Below the pieces are notes generated by a model. It did no database searches. It saw only the letters and a list, made by a program, of their open reading frames with translations, and had not been told where the DNA came from. Below, one piece after another: positions 562 through 45,819 of a stretch of 64,000 nt of DNA. Location: positions 53,436 through 117,435 of the forward strand of contig CAYVAT010000002.1 in NCBI GenBank assembly GCA_964449165.1. Direction: 5' to 3'. The translations under genes were made by a program, and so were the position numbers. Source of the stretch: an uncultured Eubacteriales bacterium. Its GTDB lineage: Bacteria > Acidobacteriota > Aminicenantia > Aminicenantales > Aminicenantaceae. Every line of letters begins with the position of its first letter. The first letter of the stretch is position 1.

Positions 562-590
562 TTAGACAATGAAATTATTCATTTTATTCC
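562..590 (-). promoter_or_regulatory. ECF-type promoter P1 (GGAATAAA-N15-GTCTAA) upstream of the ECF sigma gene
   Basis: Minus strand reads GGAAT-aaaatgaataatttcatt-GTCTAA. The same motif and spacing occur at 983-1011 and 4135-4163. ECF genes are commonly autoregulated. Confidence 0.7.
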
Positions 591-831: not shown

Positions 832-977
832 AAAAAAAAGCCGGCTGTCGTCAGTGAAAGAGGGGTGTTAATGGGGGGATATAGGAGGGACAGCTCTCCC
901 CAACCGGCAAAAGAGAGCCATCTTTTCGGCCATTCAGTTTATGTATTATCATGGAAGTCACTCATTTTAACTTTGCT
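832..977 (-). ncRNA. Candidate ECF-dependent small RNA (CU-rich, intrinsic terminator)
   Basis: Lies directly downstream of promoter 983-1011. Stem gccggttg/cagccggc is followed by a U8 run (832-839 on plus is A8). The loop carries CCCUCCU, CCCCCC and CCCCUC tracts. Only an 8-codon ORF (MSDFHDNT) is present. The 5' end is estimated. Confidence 0.5.
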
Positions 978-982
978 CCTTG

Positions 983-1011
983 TTAGACAAGAAAACAGTG
1001 CTTTTTATTCC
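983..1011 (-). promoter_or_regulatory. ECF-type promoter P2 (GGAATAAA-N15-GTCTAA)
   Basis: Minus strand reads GGAAT-aaaaagcactgttttctt-GTCTAA, the same spacing as P1 and P3. Confidence 0.7.
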
Positions 1012-1132: not shown

Positions 1133-1296
1133 CAGCTCTGGTCCTTACATTGGACATTCAAGAAGATTTGATAGAAAATGAAGCTTGAGATAGAATTGAA
1201 AATCATATCTGTGTGTCGGATATCAAGCGACTTTAGGACAAAGCCGAAAACTTGAATCTGTTGATAAATTCAATAACAACAAAGTAAGGAGGAGCA

Positions 1297-3474
1297 ATGA
1301 ATCACAGAAAATTGGCTTTTTATTTTATCCCGTTGATCCTGTTGTTCTCATCTTTATTTCTCCTGCATGCTGATGAAGGCATGTATCTTCTGAACAAGAT
1401 CAACCAAGACACCTTGAAAAAGATGAGGGCCATGGGATTCGAGCTCTCTCTGGAAGATATTTATAATCCCCAGGGAACAGGGCTGGCCAGTGCTGTGATC
1501 AAAATGGGGGCCACAGCATCTTTTGTCTCTCCGAATGGATTGATTGTCACCAACCACCATGTAGCCTTTGGCGCAGTCCAGAGAATCAGCACCCCAGAGA
1601 AAAATTACATCGAGGAAGGCTTCTTAGCTCGCAGCTTGGAGGAAGAAGTTCCTGCTCCAGGTTATCAAGCTTCTATTCTTCTTTCTATAAAAGATGTCAC
1701 CAAGGAAGTTTTGTCTGCTGTTAAGGATGAGATGACAGATTACGAACGCCACCAAGCCATTGAAAAGAAGACAAAGGAGATTGTAAAGCAGGCAGAAGCC
1801 AAGGATGATGTGGAGTGCGAAGTCCATTCCATGAATTTCGGGATGCAGTATTTCCTTTTTACCTATCTTAAGATCAAAGACATTCGAGTCGTTTATGTTC
1901 CTGCTCGTTCCATCGGAGAATACGGAGGAGACATCGATAACTGGATGTGGCCGCGCCACACAGGTGATTTCTCTTTTCTCAGGGCATATGTCCGACCGGA
2001 CGGAAAGCCGGCCGGATATGCCAAGGATAATGTTCCCTATAAACCCAAGTCGTACCTCAAAATTTCAGCCCGAGGCATCAAGGAAGGCGATTTTGCCATG
2101 ATACTGGGCTTTCCGGGCCGAACATACAGGCATTTCACTTCTTATGCCATCGAGTCAGACATAATGTTCCGCTATCCCTCTCAAATCAAAACTGCCCAGG
2201 ATTTAATCCGTATTTTTGAGGAACACTCCAAAAAAGACAGAGGCGCAGCCCTTAAGCTATCTTCCCTTATCAAGGGTCTGAATAACATGCTCAAGAATAA
2301 CCAGGGGATGCTCGAGGGATTGGTAAAGACAAATCTTCTCGAGAAAAAAAGAGCAGAAGAGCAGGCCTTCCTCAAATTTCTGAACAAGAACCCCGAATGG
2401 CAGAATAAGTACGGGTCTGTATTGTCCCAGATAAAATCGCTCTATGAGGAGCAGAAAGAAATAAGGGATAAGAGCGCTTATCTGAGGTGGATGGGCCGCG
2501 GCAGTCCGATGATGAGTTTTGCTTTGACCATCAACAAATGGTCAATCGAGAAACAAAAGAAGGACATGGATCGAGAACCACGATACCAAGAGAGGGATCT
2601 TCCCCGGACAGAAATGAGACTAAAGGTGGCTCAGAGAAGCCTCGTTCCCAAGGCAGATAGAGAGGCTTTGAGCTATTTCCTGAAAAACATTCTGACCCTT
2701 CCGCCTGCTCAGAAAATCCAGGCTGTGGAAAAAATAGTGAGTAAGGATCCTAGCCTCTCAAAAGAACAAGCTGTCAGCAGATTCCTGGATAGGCTATATT
2801 CAGAAACACGGCTTGCATCAGCCGAGGAAAGAATTAAAATGCTTCATCTCCCCAGAAAAGAATTGCTGGCGCTTGATGATCCCTTTATCCAATTTGCCTC
2901 TGAGCTGGAAAATGAGAGGGGAGCTCTGGACCGAAAAAACAAGGAACTTTCCGGCGCTTTATCCCGTCTTATGCCCCTTTATCTAGAAGGAATTGAGGTT
3001 TGGAAAAAAACAACCCTTTTTCCTGATGCCAACGGAACCCTTCGCCTGAATTTTGGAGAGGTGAAAGGCTATTCTCCCCGGGATGCTGTCTGGTATGATT
3101 ATCTCACCTCTCTTTCGGGCGTAGTGGAAAAAAACACAGGGAAGGAGCCGTTTAATAATCCTGAAAGGCTCCTTGAAGTCTACCGCCAAGGAGACTTTGG
3201 CCCTTATGTAGACAAGAAAATAAATGATGTGCCTGTGAATTTTTTAACTACCAATGACAGCACAGGAGGAAATTCAGGGAGCCCTGTTCTTAATGGAAAG
3301 GGAGAGCTGATCGGCCTCCTTTTTGACGGCACCTATGAAGCCATGTACAGCGATTACTATTTCAACCCTGAATTGACCCGGACTATAAGCGTTGATATAC
3401 GCTACGTCCTGTTTATCGCTGATAAAGTGGATAAAGCCCTGAATGTTCTGGAAGAGCTGACCATCATCAGGTAG
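1297..3474 (+). CDS. S46 family dipeptidyl peptidase (DPP7-like), signal peptide
   Basis: ADEGMYL N-terminus, TNHHVA, DNWMWPRHTGDFSFLRAY and NDSTGGNSGSPV motifs. FDG (Gly rather than Arg as in DPP11) suggests DPP7-type specificity. RBS aaggaggag. Confidence 0.95.
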   Translation: MNHRKLAFYFIPLILLFSSLFLLHADEGMYLLNKINQDTLKKMRAMGFELSLEDIYNPQGTGLASAVIKMGATASFVSPNGLIVTNHHVAFGAVQRISTPEKNYIEEGFLARSLEEEVPAPGYQASILLSIKDVTKEVLSAVKDEMTDYERHQAIEKKTKEIVKQAEAKDDVECEVHSMNFGMQYFLFTYLKIKDIRVVYVPARSIGEYGGDIDNWMWPRHTGDFSFLRAYVRPDGKPAGYAKDNVPYKPKSYLKISARGIKEGDFAMILGFPGRTYRHFTSYAIESDIMFRYPSQIKTAQDLIRIFEEHSKKDRGAALKLSSLIKGLNNMLKNNQGMLEGLVKTNLLEKKRAEEQAFLKFLNKNPEWQNKYGSVLSQIKSLYEEQKEIRDKSAYLRWMGRGSPMMSFALTINKWSIEKQKKDMDREPRYQERDLPRTEMRLKVAQRSLVPKADREALSYFLKNILTLPPAQKIQAVEKIVSKDPSLSKEQAVSRFLDRLYSETRLASAEERIKMLHLPRKELLALDDPFIQFASELENERGALDRKNKELSGALSRLMPLYLEGIEVWKKTTLFPDANGTLRLNFGEVKGYSPRDAVWYDYLTSLSGVVEKNTGKEPFNNPERLLEVYRQGDFGPYVDKKINDVPVNFLTTNDSTGGNSGSPVLNGKGELIGLLFDGTYEAMYSDYYFNPELTRTISVDIRYVLFIADKVDKALNVLEELTIIR

Positions 3475-3560: not shown

Positions 3561-4082
3561 TTATTTCTTGATTCGATCTCTCATCGGCGGGCGCTGGGGG
3601 AACATCTCCCTTCCGCGGAAAAATTTTCTCTCGTGCAGTCGCTCTTTCATCGCTTCCTTCACGGCCTCTCGCTGCTCAGGAGTTAATATTTTCTGTATTT
3701 CCTCTCTGAGTTTTAATCCCTCTATAAACATATCATCCTCGTAACCGGATATCCTGGAGAGAACGGCTTTTATCTTTACATAATCAAGATTCTCTTTCTC
3801 CTGCATGAGCTTTCTCAAATTCAGCCTCTCCAGACTGATCTGATTCCTCATCTGAATCATCTTCTCCTCGAATGAAAAATCCAGGCTCTTGATCTTTTCG
3901 ATCTGACTGTCTGTGACTTTAAGCTCGTCCTTTTTTGCCTGTAAAATCCACAGAATTCTTACCGGTGGCCGCATCGCAAATTCTTCACCTCTTCTCATCC
4001 GGCGGTCTGGCTGGGCCAAGCTGCTTGAAGCAAACGCAGTCACAGTCAAGATAACCAAGAAAAGTTTCACGCCTTTTTTCAT
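3561..4082 (-). CDS. Spy/CpxP-family periplasmic protein
   Basis: Signal peptide MKKGVKLFLVILTVTAFASSSLAQ; LKVTDSQIEKI and ILTPEQRE (LTxxQ-type) motifs; helical and charged. RBS aaaggag before the ATG at 4082 (the ORF track starts earlier, at 4145). Confidence 0.85.
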   Translation of the reverse strand: MKKGVKLFLVILTVTAFASSSLAQPDRRMRRGEEFAMRPPVRILWILQAKKDELKVTDSQIEKIKSLDFSFEEKMIQMRNQISLERLNLRKLMQEKENLDYVKIKAVLSRISGYEDDMFIEGLKLREEIQKILTPEQREAVKEAMKERLHERKFFRGREMFPQRPPMRDRIKK

Positions 4083-4134
4083 CTTTTGCTCCTTTCTCTG
4101 TTTCTCGTTTCTCAAATTTTTCATCTTACAAATA

Positions 4135-4163
4135 TTAGACGACATTTCCCGATTATTTATTCC
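4135..4163 (-). promoter_or_regulatory. ECF-type promoter P3 upstream of the Spy-like gene
   Basis: GGAAT-aaataatcgggaaatgtc-GTCTAA, the same motif and spacing as P1 and P2. Confidence 0.7.
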
Positions 4164-45747: not shown

Positions 45748-45819
45748 CTGGGGTGGGAGGATTCGAACCTCCGAATGGCGGATCCAAAGTCCGCTGCCTT
45801 ACCGCTTGGCTACACCCCA
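45748..45819 (-). tRNA. tRNA-Gln(UUG), CCA not encoded
   Basis: TGGGGTGTAGCCAAGCGGTAAGGCAGCGGACTTTGGATCCGCCATTCGGAGGTTCGAATCCTCCCACCCCAG; U1-A72 pair, anticodon TTG, TTCGAA T-loop. Confidence 0.97.

Follow-up and report, generated by a model that had tools for sequence, protein, structure and literature searches.

The window examined here, meaning the whole 64-kb stretch of DNA, contains a divergent intergenic region of 793 nucleotides that hosts a candidate transcription unit on the minus strand. One flank of this region is an S46 dipeptidyl-peptidase gene (1297-3474, plus strand). On the other flank, an ECF sigma factor gene (503-1, minus strand), recognized from its translation, is truncated at the window edge. 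A full-length copy of the ECF gene in a related contig (L093) matches the Pfam families Sigma70_r2, r4_2, and Sigma70_ECF. Along the minus strand from 5' to 3', the order of features is a 99-nucleotide repeat (1132-1034), promoter P2 (1011-983), the unit of approximately 145 nucleotides, a second copy of the repeat (814-716), promoter P1 (590-562), and the ECF gene. The nearest named relatives of the host organism are Candidatus Aminicenantes MAGs.

Beyond the left edge of the window, the ECF operon continues with a 143-amino-acid protein and then a 226-amino-acid LTXXQ (Spy/CpxP-like) protein, as seen in three related contigs (L093 504-2182; L098 297-3542; L101 1501-3561). The 143-amino-acid protein has no Pfam match and is a putative anti-sigma factor. 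An RND/MFP efflux adaptor gene comes after the 226-amino-acid LTXXQ gene. On the other side of the intergenic region, the S46 peptidase gene is preceded by a sigma-70-like promoter, TTGATA-17-TAGAAT, at 1168-1196 (plus strand), with 10 of 12 matches. The block holding this promoter is nearly invariant across the six lineages compared below.

Promoter Motif and Putative Regulon

P2 (GGAATAAAAAGCACTGTTTTCTTGTCTAA, 1011..983, minus strand) and P1 (GGAATAAAATGAATAATTTCATTGTCTAA, 590..562, minus strand) are exact copies of one motif, composed of GGAATAAA as the -35 element, a 13-nucleotide spacer (N13), and TTGTCTAA as the -10 element. The two are the only exact matches in the 64 kb, where shuffled sequences give an expectation of 0.00. 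ECF promoters usually have the layout GGAAC-N17-CGTC, and the spacing of the P1/P2 motif is equal to it. P2 lies 421 nucleotides upstream of P1 and has the same orientation as the ECF operon. The minus strand between the two promoters contains no ORF longer than 36 codons, which bears out the first-pass annotation in its claim that P2 drives no real gene.

The motif was also located in metagenome loci that carry ECF orthologues with 53-76% protein identity. It lies approximately 100 nucleotides before the start codon wherever the upstream sequence suffices (loci L084-L090), and it is kept although the upstream neighbors differ. Retention upstream of distant orthologues is the signature expected of an autoregulated ECF promoter. 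Judged by this conservation, the motif is a genuine autoregulatory ECF promoter, and P1 is the copy that serves the sigma factor operon.

A third match, GGAATAAATAATCGGGAAATGTCGTCTAA, is present at 4163..4135 (minus strand). It has the form GGAATAAA-N13-TCGTCTAA with one mismatch and lies directly ahead of a gene (3561-4124, minus strand) for a 187-amino-acid LTXXQ/Metal_resist-like periplasmic protein with a signal peptide. Since the first listed ATG of this gene (4145) overlaps the third promoter, translation probably starts at the ATG at 4124 instead. The gene is likely a further member of the ECF regulon. Because one LTXXQ gene is in the ECF operon and the third promoter precedes another LTXXQ-like gene, the regulon can reasonably be read as an envelope-stress regulon. 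In two distant loci, a second motif-like site is found approximately 1.3 kb downstream from the start of the ECF gene (GGAATGAATAGCATCAATCGGTGGTCTAA in L092 at 3851-3879 and GGAATAAAGTCTATTTCAATTATTTCTAA in L091 at 3834-3862, both plus strand). These sites may be other regulon promoters.

Candidate Transcript and Its Conservation

The candidate transcript is approximately 145 nucleotides in length (832..976, minus strand) and 149-174 nucleotides in relatives. Its putative 5' end, near position 976, is placed by the usual gap of 6-7 nucleotides after an ECF -10 element. All parts described here are on the minus strand. An AAGGAG sequence (978..973) is followed by a micro-ORF, ATG-MSDFHDNT-TAA (965..939), which lies within the variable 5' part of the unit. 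Downstream is a conserved core of 51 nucleotides, CCGAAAAGATGGCTCTCTTTTGCCGGTTGGGGAGAGCTGTCCCTCCTATAT (929..879). The core holds an A/U hairpin, the 5' arm of a long-range stem (GCCGGUUG, that is GCCGGTTG, at 908..901), and a GGGAG/CUCCU hairpin with the first C-rich tract. A C-rich linker (CCCCCC ... CACCCCUCUUUC, 878..848) is predicted to be single-stranded. The 3' arm of the stem, CAGCCGGC (847..840), pairs with the 5' arm and adjoins a run of eight U residues (839..832); together they form a putative intrinsic terminator (847..832).

The sequence elements of the ~145-nucleotide unit described in the first-pass annotation, the 8-base-pair stem and U8 included, were found in their places on the minus strand. 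So were GGGAGAGCTGTCCC and the tracts CCCTCCT, CCCCCC, and CCCCTC. A or T homopolymer runs of at least eight nucleotides number only 15 in the 64-kb window. The C content of the 3' half of the unit falls in the top ~0.6% among windows of 46 nucleotides.

Syntenic contigs for comparison came from several studies and were reached through the ECF factor's protein cluster at 90% identity. The lineage of the window is independently confirmed by three contigs (L081, L093, and L098). In five further lineages, P2 and the unit likewise lie in the S46-ECF intergenic region (L099/L100, L101-L103, L104-L111, L113-L115, and L117). In all unit-bearing relatives the ECF protein is at least ~89% identical and the synteny is the same. 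Among loci anchored on the S46 gene and collected from 185k genomes, the closest (L001 at 90%) and the next (L002 and L003 at 71%) were set aside; their upstream genes differ, which makes an intergenic comparison useless.

The 4-fold degenerate sites of the flanking genes were used as the neutral baseline, with 56 of 138 sites (41%) variable among the six lineages. The -35 and -10 positions of P2 are variable at 1 of 16 positions in the same lineages (P=0.003 against the 4-fold rate), and the P2 spacer is variable at 8 of 13. The 51-nucleotide core has 6 variable columns out of 52 (12%; binomial p=6.5e-6 against the 4-fold rate, six lineages). The remaining parts vary at the neutral rate: the 5' part, including the micro-ORF, at 35%; the C-rich linker, pyrimidine-rich in all lineages, at 40% (12 of 30 columns); and the 3' arm with the U tract at 31%. 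Indels are tolerated at three places, with 23 nucleotides right after the -10 element, 1 nucleotide in the second C tract of the linker, and 1 nucleotide in the micro-ORF. The low variability relative to the 4-fold rate indicates that P2 and the core are maintained while the rest drifts. By this comparison, the -35 and -10 positions of P2 are under purifying selection in the six lineages. Taken with the conservation of the motif, this selection makes it very likely that P2 is a real ECF-dependent promoter.

Constraint on the core could in principle act on DNA, for example if the core were the operator through which a regulator controls the divergent promoters of the S46 peptidase and ECF genes. 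The core does contain inverted repeats (AAAAGA/TCTTTT and GCTCTC/GAGAGC), and nucleotide-level constraint without covariation would suit such a site. An operator leaves the selection on the -35 and -10 positions of P2 unexplained, however, together with the adjoining U tract and the pairing-preserving changes 55 nucleotides apart that are described below. We regard this reading as quite improbable.

Coding potential was assessed for each frame of the unit. The sequence of the micro-ORF is MSDFHDNT in the window; in four lineages (L099/L104/L113/L117) its TAA stop is changed to AAA and it becomes MS(H/N)F(H/Y)D(N/S/D)TKTE. In L101/L103 a 1-nucleotide deletion causes a frameshift. Most changes in the micro-ORF are non-synonymous, and the AAGGAG ahead of it is confined to the window, being replaced by ACAGAG or AAAGAG in all relatives. 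Neither frame nor length is thus kept among the six lineages, and the suggestion of a dual-function RNA that also encodes this peptide does not survive the comparison. A frame of 36 codons has a different end in every lineage. A frame of 49 amino acids, annotated by gene callers in L099/L100, is reduced to 21 codons in the window, is interrupted in L113 by a TAA at its third codon, and would have to read through the stem and the U tract.

Several of these observations, the absent Shine-Dalgarno conservation, the frameshift, and the variable stops among them, speak against a small protein from the 8- to 11-codon micro-ORF or from a frame of 21 to 51 codons. The micro-ORF ATG is invariant and an ORF of 8 or 11 codons is present in five of the six lineages. 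The frame MTEKMALFCRLGR... has 9 synonymous and 10 non-synonymous changes against 5 and 15 for the others, a difference that is not significant; the counts single out no frame significantly. Against a protein, synonymous positions inside the core are conserved as well, with only about 1 of 10 such positions varying in an alignment read by eye. Searches among 5.8 billion proteins with the 49-amino-acid ORF of L099 and with a 50-amino-acid plus-strand ORF gave no relatives, each matching itself only, and a protein search with the 36-amino-acid ORF gave only repeat or low-complexity matches. Since frames are not kept, synonymous positions are also conserved, and homologues were not found, the constraint acts at the nucleotide level. 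The alignment supports a non-coding P2-driven unit, and a small protein is the least probable of the readings considered.

The RNAalifold consensus of five sequences contains the A/U hairpin, the 8-base-pair stem GCCGGYUG/CRRCCGGC, the enclosed GGGAG/CUCCU hairpin with approximately 35 nucleotides of C-rich single strand, and the U tract. All 8 pairs of the long-range stem are kept in the 7 sequences examined, and in the model that includes the GGGAG/CUCCU hairpin all 133 cells are paired. Stem pair 6 is U-G in four sequences, U-A in two, and C-G in one; pair 7 is U-A in six and U-G in one. None of the three substitutions in the stem arms disrupts a pair. The stem also appears in the centroid folds of three lineages. 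Covariation could not be separated from shuffles at this low divergence, with no pair changed on both sides relative to the consensus. An alternative model, with a 13-base-pair hairpin and a pseudoknotted stem, fits nearly as well, with one pair broken in 6 of the 7 sequences; both the nested and the pseudoknot model fit, and neither is statistically supported. The folding energy of the unit is close to that of shuffles (z +0.74), as are those of relatives and sub-segments, including the 3' half in four lineages (z -0.64 to +0.39). Of the structured RNA proposed earlier, the pairing in the stem stands, but covariation is not significant and the folding energy is unremarkable.

The putative terminator is atypical in that the 8-base-pair stem encloses 53 nucleotides. 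A consensus terminator scan did not call the stem and U8 because of this large loop. Over 20 kb the same scan gave as many matches as in shuffles and is uninformative on terminator usage. The U tract directly follows the stem in five of the six lineages, as U8 or, in four, as U7A; L101/L103 have UUUCUUAU instead.

An atypical and possibly leaky terminator, with a U tract eroded in L101/L103, leads to a different reading of the unit as a cis-acting leader. The ECF operon would then have P2 as an additional, more distant promoter; most transcripts would stop at the stem and U tract, and regulated read-through would add to the output of P1. The co-orientation of P2 with the operon, 421 nucleotides upstream of P1, agrees with this arrangement, as do the alternative pairings between the 13-base-pair hairpin and the long-range stem. 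The sequence between the unit and the ECF gene speaks against it: it contains a complete conserved P1, and in two lineages insertions of ~145-190 nucleotides have entered the spacer that separates the unit from P1. In addition, the leader ORF is not conserved, and the weak ribosome-binding site of the ECF gene shows no evident complementarity to the C-rich region. A cis-acting leader is unlikely on balance, though it is the strongest of the alternatives.

A leader-peptide attenuator in particular was rejected. Like such attenuators, the unit lies ahead of an operon on the same strand and combines a short ORF with alternative hairpins and a U tract. It differs in that the ORF is kept in neither frame nor length, as the frameshift and stop variation indicate, and in that a full promoter, P1, intervenes before the operon.

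The C-rich tracts had been proposed as anti-Shine-Dalgarno sequences. The tracts are present, and 35 of the 59 initiation regions crudely delimited in the window have GGAG or GAGG. Of the three tracts only CCCUCCU is conserved, with a predicted internal pairing to GGGAG, whereas the other two drift neutrally. Duplex energies with the 59 initiation regions, all from these 64 kb of the genome, are weaker for the real unit than for 100 of 100 composition-matched shuffles. The tracts and the common GGAG/GAGG nearby are as proposed, and pairing above the level of shuffles was not found in the window; the proposal gains no support from these data but is not refuted by them.

The unit was also compared with described RNA families. 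A cmscan of the window at gathering thresholds returned only a tRNA gene and no sRNA family. The tRNA gene lies at 45748-45819 (minus strand) and is the sole match of that level in the window. A permissive Rfam scan of 450-1350 gave chance-level matches only. The best was to the serC leader, on the other strand, with 21.8 bits where the gathering threshold is 35; SraB scored 13.3 against 130. The covariance models of MicA, RybB, and MicL gave no match. For an RsaE/RoxS-type family there was likewise no Rfam match, and two of the three C-rich tracts are not conserved. The earlier view of the unit as apparently undescribed agrees with these scans, at both gathering and permissive levels.

Distribution and Origin of the Unit

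The unit has a narrow distribution. Locus L095, with an ECF protein 79% identical and the same S46/ECF synteny, has neither P2 nor the unit. The ECF-anchored metagenome loci with 53-76% identity confirm P1, and a blastn comparison found no unit in them. A covariance model built from the core and the 3' half found no further copies in the window and 811 kb of collected loci. The absence from L095 and the other loci indicates an element that arose recently and is restricted to one clade. From its distribution, the unit is a young, clade-restricted element and no ancient family. The conservation in relatives asked about at the outset is present in six lineages with an ECF identity of at least ~89%, and the unit was not found in L095 at 79% or in the more distant loci compared. 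A literature search for sRNAs in Aminicenantes surfaced nothing.

Similarity to the P1 leader offers a clue to the origin of the unit. When anchored at the -10 element, the first ~60 nucleotides of the unit show a weak colinear similarity to the P1 leader, with p values of 0.04-0.15 in several lineages. Within the 23-nucleotide indel, GATGGAGTAA is similar to the -35 region and may be a degenerate copy of it. No significant local similarity was found between the unit and the coding 5' regions of the ECF or S46 genes. That the unit arose when the P1 promoter and its leader were partly duplicated is plausible on these alignments.

If such a duplication had merely persisted in one clade, the unit could be a neutral by-product that yields at most transcriptional noise. 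The clade restriction, the weak P1-leader similarity with its indel and degenerate -35 copy, the neutral rate over much of the unit, and the missing fold signal are all in keeping with that idea. Neutrality does not account for the P2 core positions and the 51-nucleotide core, both significantly more conserved than 4-fold sites, or for stem substitutions that without exception keep pairing. We consider a by-product improbable.

A decayed gene fragment or a transposon end was considered as another source and rejected. The unit shows no significant similarity to the 5' regions of the neighboring genes and is single-copy in the window, and the flanking repeats are absent from four of the six lineages that keep the unit. 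This last observation also indicates that the repeats are not part of the unit.

The repeats themselves are two direct copies of a 99-nucleotide element (716-814 and 1034-1132) that flank the P2 unit and are 98/99 identical. The element forms a hairpin with a 16-base-pair stem (RNA fold of -39.8 kcal/mol, z -5.5), and its single mismatch is a G-U pair on the minus strand. L101/L103 have one copy, 94% identical, in the upstream position. In the four other lineages the upstream position holds a shorter sequence, judged by eye to be ~60% similar, and the downstream position is empty. Four short-read contigs (L081, L082, L093, and L098) end at or near the repeats. The element has no Rfam match and no other copy in the window, and may be a mobile hairpin element or a local duplication.

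The spacer between the U tract and P1 is an insertion hotspot. In the window it holds the 99-nucleotide repeat and ~75 nucleotides of other sequence (640-715), while L101/L103 have an unrelated insertion of ~190 nucleotides (approximately 1160-1390 of L101). The other four lineages carry neither insertion.

Interpretation and Comparison with Known Systems

The reading that we favor, at somewhat better than even confidence, is a clade-specific ECF-dependent small non-coding RNA in which the 51-nucleotide core is the functional part. The neighboring ECF sigma factor would use P2 as a target promoter to make a short non-coding RNA. The long-range stem would close the 3' half of this RNA and, with the U tract, end the transcript. 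The functional core would comprise the 5' arm of the long stem together with the GGGAG/CUCCU hairpin and a 16S-like CCUCCU motif. Envelope stress would release the sigma factor, which would then induce the RNA along with its own operon (the sigma factor, the putative anti-sigma factor, and the Spy/CpxP-like LTXXQ protein) and the second LTXXQ-like gene. The most likely role of the RNA would be that of a trans-acting regulatory arm whose pyrimidine-rich region pairs with purine-rich ribosome-binding regions. The comparisons show the promoter motif with its conservation, the missing coding constraint, the constraint on the nucleotides of the core, and stem substitutions compatible with the structure. 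Transcription of the RNA, its start, its stop, and everything concerning its targets we infer.

A more specific version of the small RNA is speculative, and we hold it to be improbable. By this account, the sRNA would have arisen recently through duplication of the autoregulated ECF promoter and leader, and would so have belonged to the envelope-stress regulon from the start. The selected core would be a mimic of the 16S anti-Shine-Dalgarno sequence (CCUCCU), held by the Shine-Dalgarno-like GGGAG. The RNA would then act as a general damper of translation initiation under stress and not as a seed-specific repressor.

The closest functional parallel to the favored small RNA is found in the sigma-E-dependent sRNAs of enterobacteria, MicA, RybB, and MicL (PMC4102768). 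Like these, the unit is a short non-coding sequence behind an ECF-type promoter (GGAAT-N17-TGTCTAA here) and ends in a stem and U tract. In both cases the sigma factor also induces envelope-protective proteins, which in the putative regulon here are LTXXQ/Spy-like. The unit has no sequence or structure homology to the enterobacterial sRNAs, and the phylum differs, being probably Aminicenantes here. Its conserved part is internal and not a 5' seed, with the 5' end the most variable section and subject to the 23-nucleotide indel, and its putative terminator is a long-range stem instead of a compact hairpin. A MicA/RybB-like repressor role for the unit is an unproven analogy.

RsaE and RoxS of Firmicutes are C-rich sRNAs that pair with Shine-Dalgarno regions (PMC6158497, PMC8216469). 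The unit is similar in having several C-rich tracts that could pair with G-rich Shine-Dalgarno regions. It is not homologous to them, and here only the CCCUCCU tract is conserved and is predicted to be paired with GGGAG. The proposed regulation is by an ECF sigma factor and not by regulators of the ResD/Rex type. Set beside both groups, the unit would be an unrelated new example of the well-known class of alternative-sigma-dependent sRNAs, with no described family, a placement to which we give slightly more credence than doubt.

Candidate phyla known from metagenomes alone are, to our knowledge, essentially uncharted with regard to regulatory RNAs. At this locus, comparative genomics by itself supports a selected promoter, a core conserved at the nucleotide level, and no coding frame. 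Taken together, the three features suggest an sRNA under ECF control. Practical consequences are limited, as the organism is uncultured, the clade is narrow, and ECF-dependent sRNAs are already a well-known kind. If the reading is true, the envelope-stress design of a sigma factor plus a repressor sRNA would extend outside Proteobacteria, and the unit would be a dated example of an sRNA arising beside its own regulator.
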